From: Eledone cirrhosa
Taxonomy: Eukaryota
Length of the DNA: 61,924 nt
Assembly (NCBI GenBank): GCA_964016885.1
Contig: CAXHJY010001724.1
Span: 1 to 61,924 of the forward strand
Reading direction: 5' to 3'
Part shown: piece after piece, positions 10,569 to 45,637 of the stretch
How the letters are laid out: the number at the start of each line of letters is the position of its first letter
How positions within the stretch are numbered: the stretch's first letter is position 1
The notes under the pieces: model-generated
What the model saw: only the letters and a program-made list of their open reading frames with translations
The model's database searches: none
What the model was told of the DNA's origin: nothing
Translations under genes and position numbers: made by a program

Positions 10569-11388
10569 ATTAATCCACTCGATATGCAAATTGGACTACT
10601 CAGCCGTTAATATGCAAAAGATAAGTATATAAGTTCAACAATCTGGCGGGAAGGTATACGTTGCTGACGATAGCTAATAAGCTTGAAACTTGTACAGCGT
10701 TCCTTTGTCAGTGTTGAACCAACGAGCAACGATGGTTGCTGGACACAACAGCTTAATACGGGATGTTTGTTTACAAACACACCGAGCATTATAATAAATG
10801 TTCGGTGAATGCATACGAACATATATATATGTGTGCATGTATGTATATATATATATACATACTACTGTACGTCTGTATACATATATGTATCTACGTGTAC
10901 ATACATATATTTAAGTAACAGCCGTACTAAGAGTGGGAAATGAAATTTCGTTTCAATTTTTCCGTTTATCGTTTTCGATGCACCCGGCCGATTAACCCAC
11001 TCGATATGCAAATTGGGCTACTCAGCCGTTAATATGCATAATGTAAGTGTATACTTTCAGCAATCTGGCAGGAAAGTATACGTTGCTGAAGATAGCTAAT
11101 AAGCTTGAAACTAGTACAGCATTCCTTTGTCAGTGTTAAATAAACAAGCAACGATGGTTGCTGGGCACTACGGCTTAATACGGGATGTCTGTTTACAAAC
11201 ACACCGAGCATTATAATAAATGTTCGGTGAATCCAATCGTACATATATATATGTGTGCATGTATGTATATATATATACATACTACTGTACGTCTGTAAAC
11301 ATATATGTATGTACGTGTATATACTTATATTCAAGTAACGGCCGTACTAAGAGTGAGAAATGAAATTTCGTTTCATTTTTTCCGTTTA
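10569..11388 (+). repeat. Tandem dimer of a 422-bp unit, each copy with a minimal hammerhead ribozyme
   Basis: Units start at about 10569 and 10991; cores CTGACGA 10664 / CTGAAGA 11086, GAAAC 10685 / 11107; predicted cleavage after GTA at 10694 and 11116. Confidence 0.82.
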
Positions 11389-11451
11389 TATATATATACA
11401 TATATATATACATATATACATGTATATATATATACATATATACATATATAC

Positions 11452-14547: not shown

Positions 14548-14885
14548 TGTTGAAGTAAGAATACCATATTTTGACCCATAATCGGGAACCTCTAGAAACC
14601 ATCACCGTTTGTCTTTCACTCTCTCACCGTGTACCTTCCGACATATACACATTCCTACCAATACCCCTATATACACACCTACCTGCCCATATTCTTACCT
14701 ACACACCTTCCGACATTCTTCTCCTAATTTTGAGTTGGACTTCTACTCGCCACCTTTAGACTGCGACCTTTAAACATTTTGACTAGTCACGGAACACTAG
14801 CATATTTCCCGGTCTTCGGATTGCCAAGATTTTGTTTTTGTCTCTCTCTATCTATCTATTTATTATTCTATCTATCTATTTATCA

Positions 14886-15517
14886 CCGGGTAGGGACCCC
14901 TCGAAAAACATCTTTCCCAGATGCGTGAGCGACGAGGAAACCGTTGCACACGAATTTGTGCACTGCTCGGGCATTGCCGATCTGTGGGGCTATGTCAAAC
15001 GACTGCTGTCACAATTGGGACCGATCCGGTTGACCACCGAGTCTATTGTAACGATCAAGCCGCCTCCCCTCTTCAAAAACGAAGGAGAGGTGGTGTTTCT
15101 GTGCGTAATAGCCATGGTGAAAGAGGTTGTATGGTGGACGCGTCTGAAAGGACTGAGGTCAGACACCTTTCTCTCTGGCCAACAACTGGTCCGTTTCTTC
15201 CGATATCATTTCGGAAGGATAATCAGGATAGAGAGAGAGGTGCTGCACCCCAACCGTTTTTATGAAAGATGGGTGAAAGTGGCGAGAATGGCCCGTGTTA
15301 ATGGGCCTTCAATCTATAGGTGAGGAAGATGAAAGATCAAGGGAGCACCCCCTCTCTGTGCTCCTGAGGAGCACAGAGGCGCCTCCTCCTTATTGAGGAT
15401 TTTGTTATTAAATTTATTTTTGTTATATTTTATATTTATATTTTCATGTTATGTAACCTCCCCCCCCATTGTACTTGTCCCACTCTTTGACGCCCTGGTG
15501 GCAAATAAAAAGAAAGT
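14886..15517 (+). mobile_element. 5'-truncated Tx1-like copy 1
   Basis: Matches the end of ORF2 (PGRDP...RVNGPS) and the 3' UTR; exact 17-bp TSD TATCTATCTATTTATCA at 14869-14885 and 15518-15534. Confidence 0.92.
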
Positions 15518-15557
15518 TATCTATCTATTTATCATTCTATCTATATATTTCTCTCTC

Positions 15558-15710
15558 GGATGTGTGTAACCCCTAAAACGCCTCGTCCTTATTGAGGACT
15601 GTATTGTTAATTTTATATTTGTTATTTATTTTTTACACCTTTCTTTATGTAAACTCCCCCCTTGTATTTGTCCCCTTCTTTTGTGCCCTCGTGGCAAATA
15701 AATAGAAACT
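15558..15710 (+). mobile_element. 5'-truncated Tx1-like copy 2 (3' UTR only, diverged)
   Basis: Similar to 22535-22725 and ends GTGGCAAATAAATAGAAACT; exact 20-bp TSD TATCTATATATTTCTCTCTC at 15538-15557 and 15711-15730. Confidence 0.85.
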
Positions 15711-15735
15711 TATCTATATATTTCTCTCTCTCTGC

Positions 15736-15813
<78 letters not shown>

Positions 15814-15888
15814 TTATTTATCTACCTATCTCTTTATCTGTCTATCTATCTATATATTTCTCTCTCTCTGCATCTATCTCCCAATCCC

Positions 15889-15959
<71 letters not shown>

Positions 15960-16946
15960 GGGCGCCTGGCACACCGAGTGTGCCCAGGCGCTCACGGCTC
16001 TCTGGCAGGCGGACCCGGCTGTCAGTGGAGAATCCACCGCGTCATTCTATAGAGGGCTGGTGGTTAGCAGGTGCGACGACGCCCTCAGAGAAGCCCTAGG
16101 CATGGAGGAAGACGAACTGGCCAACCTGTTCGGTAGGACATTCAGCCCGGGACCCATGGATAACTTCCAGAGGTCCCTGGCCTGGCAATGCTACAGAAGG
16201 GCTCTGCCCGTTCGAGAAAGGCTCTACAGATACGGGCGCCCGGGTAGGGACCCATCGAAAAAGATCTGTCCCAGATGCGTGTGCGACGAGGAAACCGTTG
16301 CACACGCATTGGTACACTGCTCGGGCATTGCCGATCTGGTGGCGCTATGTCGAACAACTGCTGTCAAGGGTGGGACCGATCCGGTTGACCACCGAGTCTA
16401 TTGTAACGATCAAGCCGCCTCCCCTCTTCAAAAACGAAGGAGAGACGGTGTTTCTGTGCGTAATAGCCATGGCGAAAGAGATTGTATGGTGGACGCGTCT
16501 GAAAGGACTGAGGTCAGACACCTTTCTCTCTGGCCAACAACTGGTCCGTTTCTTCCGATATCATTTCGGAAGAAGGATCAGGATGGAGAGAGAGGTGCTG
16601 CACCCCAGCCGTTTCTATGAAAGATGGGTGAAAGTGGCGAGAATGGCCCGTGTGAATGGGCCTTCACTCTACATCAGACTATAGGCGAGGAAGATGAAAC
16701 ACCAAGGGAGCACCCCTTCTCTGTGCTCCCGAGGAGAAGGGTTGCACACTTTTTTCGGGGGTGTATGCGACCCCCCAAGGCGCCTCCTCTCTATTGAGGA
16801 TTTTGTTATAATTTTATTTTTGTTATATTTGATTTGATTTTTATATATTGTTATTGCCTCCTCCCTATTGTGTACGCCTTGTTTTGTAAACTACCCCCAC
16901 TGTACTTGTCCCACTTTTGATGCCCTGGTGGCAAATAAAAGAAACA
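15960..16946 (+). mobile_element. 5'-truncated Tx1-like copy 3
   Basis: Highly similar to about 21738-22725, with a frameshift near 16338; pure (TATC)n on both sides. Confidence 0.93.
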
Positions 16947-17212
16947 TATCTATCTATCTATCTATCAATCTATCTATCTATCTATCTATCTATCTCTCTG
17001 GGATGGACACACGCGTATAACTTGCTGAGTAAGTTCTGTTTAAATTTCTATAGAAATTCTTGTCTGATAACTTTAATTTTTGTACCATTTTGTAGAGGGA
17101 CTGCCAGGTCAAACTTTGATCTGGTCAGTCTCTCAAAATATTCTACGCCTTTAGGCGAAATAGTTAAACAAAAAAAAAGTTTTTTCTTGTTGAAAAGTCA
17201 ATATTTTTTTAA

Positions 17213-19000
17213 ATGGCCGAAGCTTCTTCACCAAAATTCGAAGGAGGAAAGGGGAAGATGAACTTACAGCTTCCCCCTGCCACTGTCACAGTAGCAGAGG
17301 TCAAGAAGAAAGGTCAGCCAGAGGAAGAATTCTCTCCACCTGTTAACCGACAACTTGACGTTGCCATGGCAACAACTCAAAGAACCAGCAGCAACAGCAA
17401 CAACAACAATGCGACGGACGAAAACAACACCAATAACAATAACAATAACAACAACAAGACCAATAACGGTGACAACAACAACAATGATAACAACAACACC
17501 ACCAACGACAACAACAACACAAACAAACAAAATTTCTCCTTCGCCGAGACGACAAGGAAAACCCTCGACTATCTGCCAGTAGATATAACAAAAGCGAAGG
17601 AGCTACTGGCGGATGCGAAAAAATATATAGTGTACGGGGAAAATGGTTCATTCACAATCCATTCCCCCCCGGAACTAAAAAGCCAGAGACTCCTAAACAC
17701 GGTCATGTTTAGGACAATCTCGAACAAAAGTAAAAAACCAGCTCAACCATCACAGAGCGAGATAGAGCTGGTTTTAAAAGACGTCATGAAGGACATCACC
17801 TTCATTCAGAAGGATAGACTCTACGGGAGTCTATCCATTCTCATGAAGGACAGGGACACAGCAGTGAAACTGTCCATCAAACCAATCACATCCACCGCAT
17901 ACACCTTCTACCCTACGTACATGGGTAGAAGAACACAAAAAATAAAAATCCACACCATCCTGCCGATTATGGACATATGGTGGGTTTTGACAGGTTTTCT
18001 GGACCTGGAGGATGACATGCTGGTGTCCATGGGAAAGGCATCGGGTGACGCGTTCAGTGGAACGAGCCTCGAACTTGTAGTTCAAATGAGGCCCGAAAGG
18101 ATCGCCCAGATCCCTGAACGCGTCATACTGGATGATCTAACCTTCATCAACATTACCGTTGAGGGTAGACGGCCCTCGTGTTACCTCTGCGGAACCAGAG
18201 GTCACCTGAGGGCTGTCTGTCCCCAACTTAATAAGAAAACCCCAATCCTGCCTACACCACCAACAACTGCACAACCAACACAATCACCACAACTACCACT
18301 ACAAAAACAACCACCACAGCTCAAACCAAAACAAAACAATGTCCAACCCATCCCCTCCACTCAAAAAACAAAAACAATTTCCAAAACACCCGTACCGCAA
18401 ACACAACCCGAAAATATACCCCTCCCCTCCAACGCGGAAGATGACCCTAGTTCGTCGTCAGACGAGGAGGAGCACTTCCACACAATCAAAAGAAAAAAAA
18501 GAAAACACACCTCAGACACACAAATGAAAAAAAACCCTCCCCAAAACATAACACTGACACCAACACAAAAGAGCTCACAACAACAGCAAACAAAAAACAC
18601 CACACAAAAACAAAAACATGCATACACATACATAAATACAAGAAACAAAAAACTGTTAAACATTGTGTACAACAACAATCTAATAAAAACACAAGGGCCT
18701 AACTTCACCCAGGCAGGGGATTTCCCCCACCTCAAAATGATTAAGGCCCCACAGGACACCTATAAAACTTTAAAAAACAATTTTAAAGAGGACGTGGGTC
18801 CCCCCTGCGTCGGGCCCATTAACCGCGTCCTCCTAAAAAACTATCCCACCCCCTCCCCAAACACCCACACAACTCCAAGCTCCCCAACCACACATCACAC
18901 TGATGCCCCCACACTTCCACAAACCACCACCCCACCCAACAACCCATCCCCCACCCTAATGGAAATTGTGCAGCCCGATACCCGGGACGCAGAGAGGTAA
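17213..19000 (+). CDS. ORF1 nucleic-acid-binding (Gag-like) protein, 595 aa
   Basis: Open frame with a single CCHC knuckle CYLCGTRGHLRAVC preceded by INITVEGRRP; Asn/Thr- and Pro/Gln-rich low-complexity parts; basic KRKKRK patch. Confidence 0.88.
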   Translation: MAEASSPKFEGGKGKMNLQLPPATVTVAEVKKKGQPEEEFSPPVNRQLDVAMATTQRTSSNSNNNNATDENNTNNNNNNNNKTNNGDNNNNDNNNTTNDNNNTNKQNFSFAETTRKTLDYLPVDITKAKELLADAKKYIVYGENGSFTIHSPPELKSQRLLNTVMFRTISNKSKKPAQPSQSEIELVLKDVMKDITFIQKDRLYGSLSILMKDRDTAVKLSIKPITSTAYTFYPTYMGRRTQKIKIHTILPIMDIWWVLTGFLDLEDDMLVSMGKASGDAFSGTSLELVVQMRPERIAQIPERVILDDLTFINITVEGRRPSCYLCGTRGHLRAVCPQLNKKTPILPTPPTTAQPTQSPQLPLQKQPPQLKPKQNNVQPIPSTQKTKTISKTPVPQTQPENIPLPSNAEDDPSSSSDEEEHFHTIKRKKRKHTSDTQMKKNPPQNITLTPTQKSSQQQQTKNTTQKQKHAYTYINTRNKKLLNIVYNNNLIKTQGPNFTQAGDFPHLKMIKAPQDTYKTLKNNFKEDVGPPCVGPINRVLLKNYPTPSPNTHTTPSSPTTHHTDAPTLPQTTTPPNNPSPTLMEIVQPDTRDAER

Positions 19001-19024
19001 GTGCCTTTTCTCTTCACCACCAAC

Positions 19025-22000
19025 ATGGCTATGCTAAGAGTAGGCTGTTTAAATGCGCGTGGCCTGGGCTCAACTTGGAAGCAAGCAATGCTTCTAAATG
19101 ACCTCAGGTCACAATCTATAAATGTGATGGTTATCTGCGAGGCCCGGATCAGCAGCATGCGACAGCTAGCCCCCACCTTTGACGACTTTGAGATGCACGC
19201 ATCTCTCTGTCAGCCCGGAGGTGGGGGTGGGGTTGTCGTTCTGCTGTAAAAACATATGGGCCTTGCAACACAGATAGTTCACTTGGACCCAGGGGGTCGA
19301 CTGGTGGTGCTGGACCTTGGCAGTGGTGAAGGTAGAGCCCTTAGGCTGATAGCCGCATATGCCCCTTTTGGGACAGAGCGGCCCGACTTTTTCCAGCGTC
19401 TGGAGTCTTTTCTAGGGACGTCCCGTTCCCTGCTTTTAGTGGGGGATTGGAATGGTATCCTGGATGCACGTTGGGACTATGCAGGGGCATGTCCCGATAG
19501 AGAGGGGTGCAACAGCCTCAAGGGGTTACTCGGCCGATTTGACCTGGCCGATAGATTTCGACTAGATTTTCCGACGGTGCCAACCTGGTCTTGGTCAAAT
19601 CGCAGCGGATCATCTAGATCGTACCTAGATAGATTTTTAGTTAGAAATAAGGACAGGGACTTTTTAAGTTGTCCAGAAATGCTCATGGTTGGCTATTCAG
19701 ACCACAAGTTGGTGACCTGCATGGTCAACCTTGATAGAACGCATAGACAGGGCCCCGGTTACTGGAAGCTCAACTTGTCCTTGCCGGCAAGTAGAGCCTA
19801 CAGGAATCGGATTAGTACGTTAGTTAAGGAACGGTTGACTGGAGCGATCGTCAACAGCAGGTGGTGGGTATCTCTAAAGAGAGAGATTAGAGTAGTCTCG
19901 ATTGAATTTAGTAAGGTTCTAGCTGCGGATAGGAATAGGAAGGAAAGGGAGCTAATAGATAGAGTAGAAGAGGCAATTAGAAGCGGCGACGTGGCCAGAG
20001 TGCTAGCGTCGAGAACGGCTTTGAGCCAGTTTTTCAACGAGAAGCACGAAGGCTGCGTTGTCCGAAGTAAAATACGTGCTCTAGGGAACGAGGGGGCCAA
20101 AGCTGTTAGCTGGGCCCGCGTGACAGAGGCCAACAGTGGAACTAAATCCACCATCCGGTCTTTGCGAGACCTGGATGGACGGGCGATTCTTGAGCCTAAG
20201 CAGATGTGTGAGGCCTTTCAAAGGCACTTTGCCCGACTGTTCGGGAGGGGCGGGGAGCCGGTTGGAAACGTGGACTTCGGTCCATACCTCGACGGCCTGC
20301 CGCGCCTCTCGGACAGGGAGGCGAAGTCTTGCGAGGAGCCGATTTCGGCCGCTGAGATAGAGAACGTGCTGGGCCAATGCGGCAAACGCAAATCCCCGGG
20401 TCTCGATGGTCTTCCTTACGAATTATATCTAGCTATGCCGGACTTGTTCCCCGATCTCCTCGAGGCGGTCTACTGCAACTGGCAACAGAACGGGAGAATT
20501 CCCTGTACTGTGACCAAGGGCGTAGTCACGCTAGTGAGGAAGGACGAGAACAAGGGGGACGAAATAAGTAACTTCAGGCCCATAACTCTGCTAAATACAG
20601 AGTTACAGATTTTGGCCAAGGTGCTAGCAAAGAGGTTGGCGCTTGTCGTGGGCAACCTGGTGGGAGATGCGCAGACATGCGCTATCCCGTCCAGGTCCAT
20701 CCATGACAACCTCCACCTCATGCGATACATCATAGAGAGGGTTGGGAACGAACCCGGCTTTGGTGGGGCTCTGATCAACTTGGATCAATCTAAGGCGTTC
20801 GATAGGGTCGACCATGGTTACCTGGATGCGGTGCTAGCGGCGGCAGGCTTCGGACCCGTTTTCAGGGGCTGGATCACTGCTATGCACAGCAGCCGCATCT
20901 GCTCTAGGGTCAAGGTGAACGGCTACCTCTCGGAGCCGTTCAAAATCGCGCGGTCCATCCGACAAGGGTGCCCTCTCTCCTCCCTTCTGTATGTGTTGAC
21001 TCTCGAGCCACTACTGCGGAAGTTGGAGTTGTTGCAGGGCATCCCTTTGGAACCGGGATTGCGGAAAGCGGTGTCGGCCTACGCCGATGACGTGACAGTA
21101 ATGGTGTCGACGGCCTCCGAAATCGAGGCGGTCGGCACCTTACTGGAGGAGTACGAAAAGTTCACAGGGGCTAAGCTGAACCGGGACAAGTCGATCGGTT
21201 TGCAACTCGGCACGTGGAGGGGCAGACCGATGCCCTCCGATGGCGTCGTCGGACGCTGGACGGAGGGCCCGGTGAAGTTGCTCGGGGTCTGGTTCGGACC
21301 GGACCTCCAGGTGGAGAAAAACTGGGCGGAGGTTACGAACAGGGTGTTTGCACTGACCCAGAAGTGGGCCAGTTGCAAACTATCCCTGAAAGGTCGGGCG
21401 GAGGTGGCGAACACCTACATAGCGTCCGTCATCTACTACCGCCTGACCGTAGTGCCCTGCCCAAGGGAAACCCTCACCAAGATGGAGCGCGCGCTCTTCC
21501 AATTCCTTTGGAAGAGGCGGGCTCCTATGGTGAGGAGATCCATCTGCTGTCAACACCCTTCGAAAGGAGGGCTGGGGATGCCGTGGCTAATGATGCGTAA
21601 ACACGCATTAAGGCTACGGCACCTCTACGTATTCCTCACCGGACAGCCGGTGTGGGCCTCGTTTGTGAGACGAACCTTTCCCAGACTCGTCTCACTCACC
21701 GAGCTGCAATCCTGGGTCAAGCAAAGACCGAGAAAACTGGGCGCCTGGCACACTGAGTGTGCCCAGGCGCTCACCGCCCTCTGGCAGGCGGATCCGGTTA
21801 TCAGTGGAGACTCCACCGCAACATTCTATAGAGGGCTGGTACGCAGCAGGTGCGACGACGCCCTCGGAGAAGCCCTAGACATGGAGGAGGACGAACTGGC
21901 CAGCCTGTTCGGTAGGACATTCAGCCCGGGACCTATGGACAACTTCCAGAAGTCCCTGGCCTGGCAGTGCTACCGAGGGGCTTTACCCGTTCGAGAAAGG

Positions 22001-22462
22001 CTCTACAGACACGGGCGCCCGGGTAGGGACCCCGCCAAAAAGATCTGTCCCAGATGCGTGTGCGACGAGGAAACCGTTGCACACGCATTGGTACACTGCT
22101 CGGGCGTAGCCGATCTGTGGGGCTATGTCGAACAACTGCTGTCAAGGGTGGGACCGATCCGGTTGACCACCGAGTCTATTGTAATGATCAAGCCGCCTCC
22201 CCCCTTCAAAGATGAAGCAGAGGCGGTGTTTCTGTGCGTAATAGCCATGGCGAAAGAGGTTGTATGGTGGACGCGTCTGAAAGGACTGAGGTCAGGCACC
22301 TTTCTCTCTGGCCAACAACTGGTCCGTTTCTTCCGATATCATTTCGGAAGAAGGATCAGGATGGAGAGAGAGGTGCTGCACCCCAGTCGTTTTTATGAAA
22401 GGTGGGTGAAAGTGGCGAGAATGGCCCGTGTGAATGGGCCTTCTCTTTACATAAGCCTGTAG
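19025..22462 (+). pseudogene. ORF2: AP endonuclease + reverse transcriptase + C-terminal zinc finger, with one in-frame TAA at 19247-19249
   Basis: APE motifs LNARGL, VGDWN, SYLDRFLV, SDH; GPGYWKLN linker; RT motifs KSPGLDG, NFRPITLLN, LDQSKAFDRV, RQGCPLS, AYADDV; CPRC...ETVAHALVHC. ORF-track entries 19001-19249 and 19256-22462 share one frame. Confidence 0.93.
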
Positions 22463-22879
22463 GTGGAAAAGAGGAAGGAACGAGGGAGCACCCCCTCTCT
22501 GTGCTCCTGAGGAAAAGGGTTGCACACTTTTTTCGGGGGTGTGTGCGACCCCCCAAGGCGCCTCCTCTCTATTGAGGATTTTGTTAAAAATTTTATTTTT
22601 GTTATATCTTATTTTATTTTTATATTTTGTTATTGCCTCCTCCTTATTGAGGACGCCTTTTTGTGTAAACTCCCCCCTTTGTACTTGTCCCACTTTTGAT
22701 GCCCTAGTGGCAAATAAAAGAAACTTATCTATCTATTTATCTATCTATCTCCCAATCCCTCTATCTACATATCTACTTATCTATGTCACTCTGTCTCAAT
22801 CTACTTACTCCTAAATGGTTGACTGAATACACATGCACTTTTTCTAAATTTTGTATCTTCCTTTCATCTTTTATTAATA

Positions 22880-35804: not shown

Positions 35805-36023
35805 GAGTCGAGCGACTTTTCGTCAAATTGGACCGAGGAAATAAGGTTTCCATTGGTCTTTCCAATTGCTAATACTCTCTGTCGGTCGCAACTCCAGGTA
35901 GAAAAAGCAACGTGAAATAAATTTCTTGTCCAAGGCCATAACGCATCGCTCGGTCCGGGAATCGAACTCATAACCTCACGATTGTGAATCCAATTGTCTA
36001 ACCACTCAGCCACACGCCTTCAC
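35805..36023 (-). mobile_element. SINE family A
   Basis: Colinear with 3243-3461. Confidence 0.8.
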
Positions 36024-36096: not shown

Positions 36097-36826
36097 TACA
36101 AGGATTGCCTGAAATATTCATAGGCGGACTATGAAGGATTGATGCTAGGGCTGGGAAATCCTGCATACATTAGTTTCTATTCTTCTTATTAATGACTGCA
36201 TTGTTGCTTTCCAGGGACTAGGTTGAAAAATAAACCCCACTTTGTCATTCCGTGAGAGTACCTTGGTCATAAGCTGATTATGAAAGAGAGACGATAGAGC
36301 GTTGAAATTTCAATTGTTGAATTGGCAGTATCGGTAGAGGGCCGGATGCCATGCTTTCCAGCATAGTTACGTCCCTTTATGGTCTGAGTTCAAATCTCGT
36401 CGAGGTTAGCTTTGCCTTTCATCCTTACGGGGGTCGATAAAATAAAGTACCAGTAATGCACTGGGCATTTGCTGGCATTGTGCCAAAAGTAGAAACAGTT
36501 AATTTCAACTATTCTTATTAAAAACTGCATTGTTTCTTTCCAACGTTTAAAAAATAAACAGCATTTGGTCATTCCGTGAGAGTATCTTGGTCAATCTATG
36601 AACTTTTCAGATGACACTCGTATACAGTAGTAATATTAGAACTGAGAGTATATTGCTCATATGCTAACTATGAAGGAGTGATGCTAGAGCTGTGAAATCT
36701 TGCATTCATTAATTTCAACGATATTTATCAATAATTGCATCTTTCTTCCAAGAGAGAATATTTAAAATTAATCGTAATTTCGTAATTCCTTGAGTCAGCC
36801 TATAAACTTGTTAGCCGACCTTCGTA
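36097..36826. mobile_element. Cluster of Tc1/mariner-like MITE remnants (interrupted by SINE B)
   Basis: Left end TA-CAAGGATTGCCTGAAATATTCATAGGC; right ends CTATGAACTTTTCAGATGACACTCG-TA (36622) and CCTATAAACTTGTTAGCCGACCTTCG-TA (36826); internal segment present three times. Confidence 0.55.
36321..36497 (+). mobile_element. tRNA-derived SINE family B
   Basis: TGGCAGTATCGG...GAGTTCAAATC...TTGCCTTTCATCCTTACGGGGTCGATAAAATAAAGTACCAG. Confidence 0.8.
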
Positions 36827-36917: not shown

Positions 36918-37292
36918 TTGGTCGATGTGTGCTACACAAGAATGCTGAGGATGGTTCTGAACATTAATCAGTATACACTGAGGATGAAGTACTTAGAGCT
37001 GTACGGGAACCTCCCAAAAGTCAGCTCGAAAGTAGCACAGAGGAGAGTGAGGTTAGCTGGACATGCTCACCGGCATTCAAAGTTGACACTGCACTTAGTG
37101 CTCCTGTGGGAGGCCCTGCATTGACACACTGGAAAAGGAAGACCGAGGTTGACATATGTTGATGCCCTGAGGACAGACACAAGTCTCTTGGAGACGCAGG
37201 ACATGGCAGCGATAATGAGGGACAGAAACCGCCGAAGAGGACTCGTCCATGGACCTTGGAAATTTTACCCGCCCTAGATAGATAGATAGATT
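36918..37292 (+). mobile_element. RTE-clade LINE 3' fragment, decayed
   Basis: DVCYTRMLRMVLNI...ELYGNLPKVSSKVAQRRVRLAGHAHRH...VLLWE; short (TAGA)n tail. Confidence 0.7.
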
Positions 37293-41629: not shown

Positions 41630-42765
41630 GCTAGCCTAGTCCTATCCCTAGTCTAGACTGGCCTGGCCTCGTCTTGACTGGCCTGGCCTCGTCTAGACTG
41701 GCCTAGACTGGCCTGGCCTCGTCTAGACTGGCCTACACTGGCCTGGCCTCGTCTAGACTAGCCTAGACTGGCCTGGCCTCGTCTAGACTGGCCTAGACTG
41801 GCCTGGCCTCGTCTAGACTGGCCTAGACTGGCCTGGCCTCGTCTAGACTGGCCTAGACTGGCCTGGCCTCGTCCAGACTGGCCTAGACTGGCCTGGCCTC
41901 GTCTAGACTGGCCTAGACTGGCCTGGCCTCGTCTAGACTGGCCTAGACTGACCTGGCCTCGTCTAGACTGGCCTAGACTGGCCTGGCCTCGTCTAGACTG
42001 GCCTAGACTGACCTGGCCTCGTCCAGACTGCCCTAGACTGGCCTGGCCTCGTCTAGACTAGCCTAGACTGGCCTGGCCTGGTCTAGACTAGTCTGGCTTC
42101 GTCTAGACTGGCCTAGACTGGCCTGGCCTCGTCTAGACTGCCCTAGACTGACCTGGCCTCGTCTAGACTGCCCTAGACTGGCCTGGCCTGGTCTAGACTG
42201 CCCTAGACTGACCTGGCCTCGTCTAGACTGCCCTAGACTGGCCTGGCCTCGTCTAGACTAGTCTGGCTTCGTCTAGACTGGCCTAGACTGGCCTGGCCTC
42301 GTCTAGACTAGTCTGGCTTCGTCTAGACTGGCCTAGACTGACCTGGCCTCGTCTAGACTGCCCTAGACTGGCCTGGCCTCGTCTAGACTGGCCTAGACTG
42401 GCCTGGCCTCGTCTAGACTAGTCTGGCTTCGTCTAGACTGGCCTAGACTAACCTGGCCTCGTCTAGACTAGTCTGGCTTCGTCTAGACTGGCCTAGACTG
42501 GCCTGGCCTCGTCTAGACTAGTCTGGCTTCGTCTAGACTGGCCTAGACTGGCCTGGCCTCGTCTAGACTAGTCTGGCTTCGTCTAGACTGGCCTAGACTG
42601 ACCTGGCCTCGTCTAGACTGCCCTAGACTGGCCTGGCCTCGTCTAGACTAGTCTGGCTTCGTCTAGACTGGCCTAGACTGGCCTGGCCTCGTCTAGACTG
42701 CCCTAGACTGGCCTGGCCTCGTCTAGACTGGCCTAGACTGGCCTGGCCTCGTCTCGTCTCGTCTC
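41630..42765. repeat. GC-rich 30-bp minisatellite built from 5-mers
   Basis: (GTCTAGACTGGCCTAGACTGGCCTGGCCTC)n with 20-bp variant GTCTAGACTAGTCTGGCTTC. Confidence 0.95.
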
Positions 42766-43401: not shown

Positions 43402-43437
<36 letters not shown>

Positions 43438-43479
43438 TACAGGTATACAAGTACACACATACACACACACATTTGTTAT

Positions 43480-44495
43480 CATCACACAGATACACTCTCA
43501 CACTCATACACATATACATTCATACAAACTTGTCATCTACACACTTACAAACACGAATACACACACACACATTCACTCACACACACACTCACACACACAT
43601 ATACTCACATACACACTCATACAGGTATACACATATACACATACTTGCCATCAAGACACACACACTCTCACACTCATACACATATACATTCATACAAACA
43701 AACTTGTCATCTACACACTTACAAACACGCATACACACACACATTCACTCACACACACATACACTCACATCCACACTCATACAGGTATTCACATATACAC
43801 ATACTTGCCATCAAGACACACACACACACACACACACTCTCACACTGATACACATATACATTCATACAAACAAACTTGTCATCTACACACTTACAAACAC
43901 GCATACGCACACATATTCACTCACACACACTCACACACACATACACACTCATACAGGTATTCACATATACACATACTTGCCATCAAGACACACACACACA
44001 CACTCTCACACTCATACACATATACATTCATACAAATACACTTGTCATCTACATACTTACAAACACGCATACACACACACATTCACTCACACACACATAC
44101 ACTCACATCCACACTCATACAGGTATTCACATATACACATACTTGCCATCAAGACACACACACAGACACACACTCTCTCACACTCATACAGATATACATT
44201 CATACAAACACACTTGTCATCTACACACTTACAAACACGCATACACACACATATTCACTCACACACACTCACACACACATACACACTCATACAGGTATTC
44301 ACATATACACATACTTGCCATCAAGACACACACACACACACACTCTCACACTCATACAGATATACATTCATACAAACACACTTGTCATCTACACACTTAC
44401 AAACACACATACACACACATAATCACATATACACACACTCACACACACATACACACTCATACAGGTATTCACATATACACATACTTGCCATCAAG

Positions 44496-44528
<33 letters not shown>

Positions 44529-45009
44529 CATACAGATATACATTCATACAAACACACTTGTCATCTACACACTTACAAACACGCATACACACACATATTC
44601 ACTCACACACACTCACACACACATACACACTCATACAGGTATTCACATATACACATACTTGCCATCAAGACACACACACACACACACTCTCACACTCATA
44701 CAGATATACATTCATACAAATACACTTGTCATCTACACACTTACAAACACGCATACACACACATATTCACTCACACACACTCACACACACATACACACTC
44801 ATACAGGTATTCACATATACACATACTTGCCATCAAGACACACAAACACACACACACTCTCACACTCATGCAGATATACATTCATACAAACACACTTGTC
44901 ATCTACACACTTACAAACACGCATACACACACATATTCACATATACACACACTCACACACACATACACACTCATACAGGTATTCACATATACACATACTT
45001 GCCATCAAG

Positions 45010-45030
<21 letters not shown>
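43480..45030. repeat. CA-derived minisatellite, unit about 170 bp, about 9 copies
   Basis: CTTGCCATCAAGAC recurs every 160-174 bp. Confidence 0.9.
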
Positions 45031-45043
<13 letters not shown>

Positions 45044-45637
45044 ACATACACATACATATACATGAACAAAATCTGATATATATCTTAGTCCGCGTATAAG
45101 TACACCTTAGTAAAGATCTAACCTACATCATGAGAACGCACAATCGACATTTGCCACGGGGCCGGAAACGAAAGCAGAACCAATTACATCGGTGTATAAA
45201 ATTAAGCTTTGATGTTTTTCACCGGTTTTCTTCCAGATCCTTCATTAAACTTCAAGTATTTACTTTAAATCAAGTGATGAGGATGAATAAGAAAATGACG
45301 ACGAAAGAAGCAAGTTGGAAAAACAAACAAACAAAACAAAACAAACAACAAAAGCAAAATATTTTTATATATATGTATATATGTGTGTGTGTATATATGT
45401 ATATATATATATGTACATATATATATATATGTGTATATATATATATATGTATATATATATGTGTATATATATATATATATGTGCATATATATATATTTAT
45501 ATATATATATATGTATATATATATATGTATATATATATGTATATATATATATATCTATATCAATATATATATATATGTGTACATATATATATATATGTAC
45601 ATATATATATATGTACATATATATATATATATATATG

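Follow-up and report, generated by a model that had tools for sequence, protein, structure and literature searches.

We analysed contig CAXHJY010001724.1 of the Eledone cirrhosa assembly GCA_964016885.1, a stretch of 61,924 nt that is referred to below as the window. Between positions 14869 and 22770 it holds four copies of a long interspersed nuclear element (LINE) of the apurinic/apyrimidinic endonuclease (APE) type. All four copies belong to one lineage, lie on the + strand and are arranged head to tail, with TATC-type repeat between them (Table 1). The tract that hosts them is a degenerate TATC repeat. A first reading made from the letters of the window (the sequence-only reading) had proposed a retrotransposon specific for (TATC/GATA)n, with four independent insertions in one tract; the subject here is this element and its association with the repeat. 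Such repeats are scarce in the window, where (TA)4+ occupies 12,974 bp and (TATC)4+ only 268 bp. A tblastn search of the window found no further coding copy outside the array. A GATA run at 37277 was also considered and is not an element junction.

As the sequence-only reading had described, each copy ends in GAAA plus two bases (GT in copy 1, CT in copy 2, CA in copy 3 and CT in copy 4) and is followed in every case by TATCT. The exact target-site duplications (TSDs) of 17 bp and 20 bp around copies 1 and 2 were also borne out, and both include interruptions of the tract. Copies 3 and 4 have pure TATC on both sides, so that their TSDs are unreadable. Copies 3 and 4 are 92% identical, copy 1 is 80–82% identical to copies 3 and 4, and copy 2 can be aligned in pieces at about 75–87%. 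Identities of 75–92% exclude a tandem duplication and, with the distinct TSDs, uphold the view that these were separate insertions. Copy 3 is 97.5% identical to other genomic copies, and the last 167 nt of copy 4 occur with 100% identity at at least 31 genomic places, copy 4 itself counted. The target tract also contains two exact duplications, one of 25 bp (15872–15896 and 22743–22767) and one of 33 bp (15711–15743 and 15847–15879), which may be old TSDs or the result of slippage; the 25-bp repeat is possibly an older TSD around copies 3 and 4 together.

Table 1. The LINE array of the window, with the reading frames and 3′ untranslated region (UTR) of copy 4. ORF, open reading frame; RT, reverse transcriptase.
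Feature	Position	Strand	Description
TSD of copy 1, 5′ repeat	14869..14885	+	17 bp, exact match at 14869 and 15518
Copy 1	14886..15517	+	5′-truncated: ORF2 residues 999–1142 and 3′ UTR; divergent subfamily; 80% to copy 4
TSD of copy 1, 3′ repeat	15518..15534	+	17 bp
TSD of copy 2, 5′ repeat	15538..15557	+	20 bp, exact, partner at 15711
Copy 2	15558..15710	+	153-bp 3′-UTR fragment of another subfamily; 78% to copy 1 over 136 columns
TSD of copy 2, 3′ repeat (15711–15730), then compound TATC tract	15711..15959	+	internal 33-bp duplication, 15711 and 15847
Copy 3	15960..16946	+	5′-truncated, ORF2 from residue 905, one frameshift; 92% to copy 4
(TATC)n spacer between copies 3 and 4	16947..16994	+	read from the sequence
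Copy 4	16995 (approximate)..22725	+	full-length copy of the youngest subfamily; unique sequence starts at 16999, after a short TC leader
ORF1 of copy 4	17213..19000	+	595 aa, intact; one CX2CX4HX4C zinc knuckle at 18179–18220, motif read directly
ORF2 of copy 4	19025..22462	+	1145 codons; APE endonuclease, RT, C-terminal CCHC; premature TAA at 19247–19249 in the APE domain
3′ UTR of copy 4	22463..22725	+	hairpins at about 22484–22508 and 22517–22551; AATAAA at 22713–22718; no poly(A)
Right end of target tract	22726..22770	+	22743–22767 is an exact repeat of 15872–15896 (25 bp)

The 3.0-Gb genome was searched with a 26-nt pattern from the 3′ end of the element that stops before the junction, and the flank was read two bases later. 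Of the 3,479 matches, 2,956 (85%) were followed by TATCT, 2,660 of these by TATCTAT, and 377 (11%) by TATAT. In 20 random 10-kb background stretches read on both strands, TATCT occurred 697 times and TATAT 10,186 times. TATAT is therefore about 15 times commoner as an available site, and the per-site preference for TATCT over TATAT is about 115-fold (bootstrap 54–216). The share of a single flank type lies far above the >20% that was taken to indicate target specificity in PMC4494074, and the random flanks that the sequence-only reading had counted as evidence against itself were not seen. In the youngest subfamily, TATCT followed 303 ends and TATAT 44; as the TATAT share is nearly the same as that overall (44/347, or 12.7%, versus 11.3%), the bias did not arise by later accumulation. 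A relaxed specificity of this youngest subfamily, considered because 7 of its 15 ends in the sample described below read TATAT, was rejected on the same genome-wide count. A second pattern returned at least 13,483 further ends from related subfamilies, with TATCT next in about 79 of the first 100 listed (hand count). The lineage thus comprises at least 3,479 and up to about 17,000 3′ ends, and copies are spread over many large contigs.

The first 100 listed 3′ ends, all from one contig (C1) and picked blind to their flanks, were then used as a detailed sample; 18 of these loci are full-length copies. TAT was found at the same offset at all 100 loci and T as the fifth base at all 100, the junctions reading TATCT at 85, TATAT at 14 and TATTT at one. 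No insertion in this sample started on the GATA strand (AGATA), so that the fixed strand and phase claimed at the outset were confirmed. The two bases ahead of TAT (CA at 63 loci, TA at 21, CT at 15 and TC at one) belong to the element, because they track the subfamily rather than the repeat. At the other end of the insertions, TATCTATC was present within 30 nt of the 5′ junction at 58 loci, compared with 18 of 13,320 background bins.

The length of repeat at the insertion sites varied. Counting TATC units on at least one side, there were three or more at 58 loci, two or more at 73 and fewer than two at the other 27, while 15 ends had no TATC unit whatever and four loci had (TA)n on both flanks. 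With TATAT next to 11% of ends genome-wide, and with not even two TATC units at 27 loci of the sample, what is recognised is a short motif, TAT(C>A)TAT, that reaches its highest density in (TATC)n; one TAT(C/A)T unit can be enough for insertion. Strict GATA-repeat specificity, as first proposed, was therefore not sustained and is replaced by a strong preference. Likewise, the statement that no copy lies in (TA)n is correct for the window but does not extend to the genome, given the 377 ends followed by TATAT.

To separate a target from a tail, the two flanks of each locus were compared. Non-periodic TSDs of at least 10 bp were found at 28 of the 100 C1 loci, compared with 3.5 when 5′ and 3′ flanks were paired at random (maximum 7 of 200). 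Adding 35 further loci of the young set to the C1 sample gave 135 junction pairs, of which 47 had non-periodic TSDs of at least 7 bp; the 34 with tight junctions span 7–27 bp with a median of about 14. The duplication includes the first T of TAT, also on the 5′ side, in all 30 informative cases, under a scoring scheme that favoured inclusion of this T. For 22 sites the tract can be followed to its end on either side, and at none of them did the TATC units 3′ of the element outnumber those 5′ of it. At non-repeat sites such as L102, L121, L128, L129 and L180 the TSD directly follows the element. At least two TATC units also precede 44 of the 81 truncated copies, so that TATC is not confined to the 3′ side, a confinement that the sequence-only reading would have held against its own proposal. 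Because of the excess of non-periodic TSDs and the absence of extra 3′ units, the (TATC)n repeat at readable sites is the target and not an element-encoded tail. It differs in this from the microsatellite tails of RTE/CR1-type elements, since here the unit lies inside the TSD.

The anatomy of the element was established from copy 4 and its intact relatives. A Pfam search of ORF1 gave no match, Transposase_22 included. Its look-alikes in Atlas (scores 0.89–0.92) carry zf-CCHC, RNA recognition motif (RRM) and ZCCHC3-type domains, and an RRM in ORF1 is a lead only. For ORF2, the intact copy L031 scored above the Pfam thresholds with both RVT_1 (E 3.6e-25) and Exo_endo_phos (E 6.1e-07). The C-terminal motif is of the CX7 type (CX2CX7HX4C); zf-RVT fell just under the cut-off in L031 (E 2.8e-05) and was above it in L249, a copy of the sister lineage described below. 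Among the fetched loci, ORF2 was stop-free in 23 of 26 full-length hits at ≥95% identity. A nicking assay, as first suggested, could thus use a natural APE domain, the proposed repair of that of copy 4 being unnecessary. The nearest solved structure is human L1 ORF2p (E 6e-47, residues 16–782), with R2 proteins at E 3e-19 or weaker, L1 and R2 being the structures compared. The endonuclease's B6-B5 hairpin loop has 9 residues, like that of human L1, when counted by hand from an alignment to LR1.

At the 3′ end, the predicted fold of the two UTR hairpins is modest (z = −2.05). The element ends 7 nt after AATAAA, and none of the 100 C1 loci has an A run at its genomic 3′ end. At the 5′ end, a TC-rich leader (CTCTAC or CTCTGG) stands ahead of GATGG in 21 of 34 distinct 5′ ends, and in L059, which sits in a TA run, TATC units separate the TSD from the 5′ end. 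Element transcripts therefore probably begin inside the upstream tract. L059, L160 and L174 are full-length copies whose 5′ ends can carry repeat sequence of the source site. Two other loci, L010 and L184, have 5′ inversions of the kind known from twin priming in L1. Copies L031, L033, L039 and L040 were also compared with window positions 16999–19000: their ORF2 sequences are more than 99% alike, and there are two types of 5′ UTR/ORF1 that are about 70% alike, which suggests an exchange of ORF1 by recombination between subfamilies.

These features place the element among the L1-group (L1/Tx1) APE-type LINEs with a Tx1-type ORF1. It has ORF1 and ORF2, an N-terminal APE domain with RT, a CCHC motif, 5′ truncation and variable TSDs, and its ORF1 has a CCHC knuckle and lacks Transposase_22. 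The Tx1 clade is described as having an ORF1 of the RRM and CCHC-knuckle type, not Transposase_22 (PMC5203782), and the proposed Tx1 membership rests on this architecture. Protein and cluster searches for reference sequences of Tx1L, Kibi, Koshi, Keno, Dewa and Mutsu returned none. An expansion of L1-Tx1 elements is reported for coleoids, Octopus vulgaris having 13 recently active families (PMC13282606, PMC8967140), and the Eledone element may be homologous to some of these. In octopus they are described as abundant and recently active, with no analysis of targets in the text consulted; the word ‘target’ does not occur in the accessible portion of PMC13282606.

The copies sit at ^TAT(C>A)TAT, mostly in (TATC)n, and we consider it probable that they do so because the APE endonuclease nicks the GATA strand. 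By the standard scheme of target-primed reverse transcription, from which the nick and priming steps are drawn, the first nick would fall at 5′-AGATA/G-3′, give or take one base, and leave a 3′-OH ending in GATA. This end would prime reverse transcription from a fixed position in the RNA, about 7 nt past AATAAA, and a second nick would be made 7–22 bp downstream of the first. Each insertion restores a TATCT site at its own 3′ end through the TSD, so that subfamilies of different age pile up head to tail. Related ends lie within 7.5 kb at 37 of the 100 C1 loci, and all 53 neighbours are on the same strand.

We infer that the endonuclease sets the choice of site. The base just ahead of the insertion point was examined at 21 non-tract sites: it was C in 11 (background 22%, p about 0.002) and a pyrimidine in 17 (background 50%, p about 0.003), the background for this test excluding 3 of the 20 stretches as satellite-like. 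This preference favours recognition by protein at the DNA level, as pairing with the RNA 3′ end is impossible for a base on that side of the nick. The endonuclease of Tx1L nicks almost only its own target in vitro (PMC1950540), and exchange of the endonuclease domain between SART1 and TRAS1 exchanges the target (PMC7265360). In published work of this kind the endonuclease is the usual determinant of the target.

Several observations weigh against this interpretation. Among the remaining C1 loci, the flank match was pure repeat and uninformative at 43, and there was no TSD at 23. When 28 loci were re-examined, internal deletions, duplications or a divergent ORF1 with a displaced 5′ call could account for some of them. 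However, L106, L133 and L146, which have TATC on the 3′ side and none on the 5′ side, remained unexplained and would fit either a tail or a deletion of the target. The nick could also lie one base further to the right, where L143 has a C. The test of the preceding base is small and includes degenerate TATC contexts and some weak TSDs. Finally, the invariant TAT could come from pairing between RNA and DNA instead of from the enzyme.

This last possibility is the basis of the main rival explanation, in which AT-rich DNA is nicked loosely and a read-through RNA ending in UAUCU... primes only from strands that end in AGATA. The invariance of TAT at the junctions, the lack of poly(A) despite an AATAAA signal and the overlap of transcripts with the tract, as judged from the source-site repeat at the 5′ ends of L059, L160 and L174, are all as expected from such pairing, and a 3′ microsatellite-like RNA has been proposed to act in site choice by RTE elements (PMC6007223). 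However, pairing within a repeat should produce slippage of register and added units, which were seen at none of the 22 sites where they would be visible; it would have to tolerate a mismatch at the fourth base at 11% of sites; and it leaves the base preference across the nick, where no pairing is possible, unaccounted for. We therefore regard RNA pairing as an unlikely but serious alternative to recognition of the site by the endonuclease.

A second alternative is that (TATC)n is an element-encoded tail, that insertion is random or merely directed to AT-rich DNA, and that arrays result from chance hits on such tails. Octopus RTE LINEs do end in a microsatellite (PMC9115989), and L133 and L146 each have a long 3′ TATC run with none at the called 5′ junction. 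However, the TSDs begin with the first TAT, which they also contain on the 5′ side, TATC precedes more than half of the truncated copies, and 15 of the 100 ends lack any TATC unit. The tail explanation is thus largely refuted, and we give it very little probability. Equally improbable is unbiased insertion followed by preferential survival in GATA tracts, or arrays made by duplication or misassembly: simple repeats abound in the window, itself an unplaced 62-kb contig, and some other arrays hold near-identical neighbours (L056/L057), but the phase is fixed to a single base at 100 of 100 loci, the youngest copies show the same bias, the neighbouring copies of the window are 80–92% alike with distinct TSDs, and copies occur on many large contigs.

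A sister lineage has the same 3′-end layout but is followed by ATTATT, with at least 9,525 ends found by pattern. Among the first 100 listed (hand count), ATTATT followed 90, ATT 97 and TATCT none, and ATTATT followed 26 of 30 in a further count. Its ORF2 is 59–67% identical to that of copy 4 and has APE and RT domains, L249 being intact, and the loci L240–L259 and L210–L239 show at least two different 5′ UTR/ORF1 starts. At 30 loci, ATT stands 5′ of the full-length and several of the truncated sister copies and is absent 5′ of 7 truncated copies, so that the view of (ATT)n as a target instead of a tail is less well supported than that of TATC. As this lineage shares the 3′ layout but uses (ATT)n, the target likely switched once in the history of the lineage. 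The endonucleases of the two lineages are about 60% identical. Comparing 8 TATC copies with 4 ATT copies, we found 30 fixed endonuclease differences, including one at the hairpin tip (S194 versus I); most of these will be neutral divergence.

At 8 of the 30 sister loci an opposite-strand LINE with a C-terminus of the restriction-like endonuclease (RLE) type lies at the end of the ATT tract. The 3′ flanks concerned (L211, L212, L214, L215, L218, L225, L228 and L238) contain an RLE-type LINE with CCHC and PD..D-K motifs that ends in (AAT)n, tail to tail with the ATT lineage, which suggests that ATT tracts are shared with an R4/Dong-like element. Dong itself is an R4-clade element with a restriction-like endonuclease. 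It is listed among APE types with (TAA)n as its target (PMC3812793), the same repeat as that of the sister lineage, which in contrast has an APE domain.

In a tree built by a quick method, 7 TATC copies (support 99) and 4 ATT copies (support 98) formed separate clades within one group that also contains an Argonauta protein (support 100); the named labels were limited to Argonauta, Patella, Phallusia and Ciona. The closest named protein relatives are from Argonauta hians, at 63% and 76%. The nearest outgroup to this octopod group is a large clade of 38–46% identity from ENA/JGI assemblies (support 98 in the same tree). More divergent relatives were seen at L157, L200, L204 and L193, which are 45–59% alike at the ORF2 C-terminus, have an AATAAA-GAAA end and stand next to ATT-like or non-repeat flanks; further lineages and targets may exist. 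In Patella caerulea, a 28% relative (SNE40_003393–003415, cluster P0077) is present as a series of adjacent, nearly identical gene models on a single chromosome, the appearance expected of a targeted LINE in tandem array. Near-identical element sequence, with pieces of ≥99%, was also present in runs X4, X5 and X6 of three further organisms and may reflect congeners, contamination or transfer. A metagenome scan for loci of a 41% relative found none.

The window has further repeats outside the array. A GC-rich 30-bp minisatellite of about 39 copies lies at 41676–42754, a 172-bp CA-rich tandem array at 43404–45050 and a 422-bp two-copy tandem repeat at 10569–11389. On the − strand, the stretches at about 35900–36000 and 36250–36450 have, by eye, the look of a tRNA-headed short interspersed nuclear element and of another short interspersed repeat; this second repeat was likewise seen by eye in the flanks of L231 and L232.

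Microsatellite targeting by Tx1 LINEs as such is already known. Kibi and Koshi of teleosts target (TC)n and (TTC)n, and crocodilian families target (TTCC)n and (TTTC)n (PMC4494074, PMC3812793). The Eledone element works like Kibi and Koshi, being likewise an APE-type LINE that inserts into a microsatellite. However, those elements belong to vertebrates and use pure pyrimidine repeats, whereas the Eledone element inserts at (TATC)n with some leakage to TATAT; as its target differs from TC, TTC, TTCC and TTTC, we do not class it with Kibi or Koshi. Tx1L of Xenopus laevis, which targets the Tx1D transposon and has a B6-B5 hairpin loop of 11 residues (PMC1950540), is also a two-ORF APE LINE with sequence-directed insertion and demonstrates that sequence specificity is possible for an APE domain of this group, but with its microsatellite target and 9-residue loop the Eledone element is not of the Tx1L family proper. 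Waldo at (ACAY)n and Mino at (AC)n (PMC3812793), and TRAS and SART at (TTAGG)n (PMC7265360), are likewise APE LINEs that enter a short tandem repeat with strand and phase fixed, SART and TRAS being a pair with different cut sites; they differ in belonging to the R1 clade of insects, in their poly(A) tails and in the repeats used. Togen targets TG repeats (PMC4640811). We found no LINE targeting GATA/TATC in the literature, although Repbase, Dfam or the supplement of PMC4494074 could hold one.

What is new, then, is the GATA-type target, probably the host group, and the sister lineage with another target. A broader reading, for which we put the chances at about even, is that this is the first GATA-targeting LINE and one arm of an undescribed octopod APE-LINE radiation that divides the microsatellites of its host between (TATC)n and, in the sister lineage, (ATT)n. 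In that reading the switch would be encoded among the about 30 endonuclease differences, including one at the tip of the hairpin loop that probes the DNA, and the ∼26,000 ends would occupy a sizeable share of the tracts while renewing their targets through TSDs.

Microsatellite targeting by L1/Tx1-group LINEs thereby gains a new class of repeat and, probably, the cephalopods as hosts, and the copy number is high by the standard of targeted elements. In this genome, a GATA or TAA microsatellite is often the junction of an element, a point of consequence for the annotation of repeats and the design of markers. How APE endonucleases gain and change their specificity is an unsettled question; grafts of the Tx1L and R1Bm loops onto the L1 endonuclease did not transfer a clean new specificity (PMC1950540). 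The sister pair offers a natural test of this question, as two sister lineages with intact young ORF2 and different repeat targets make direct domain and loop swaps possible.

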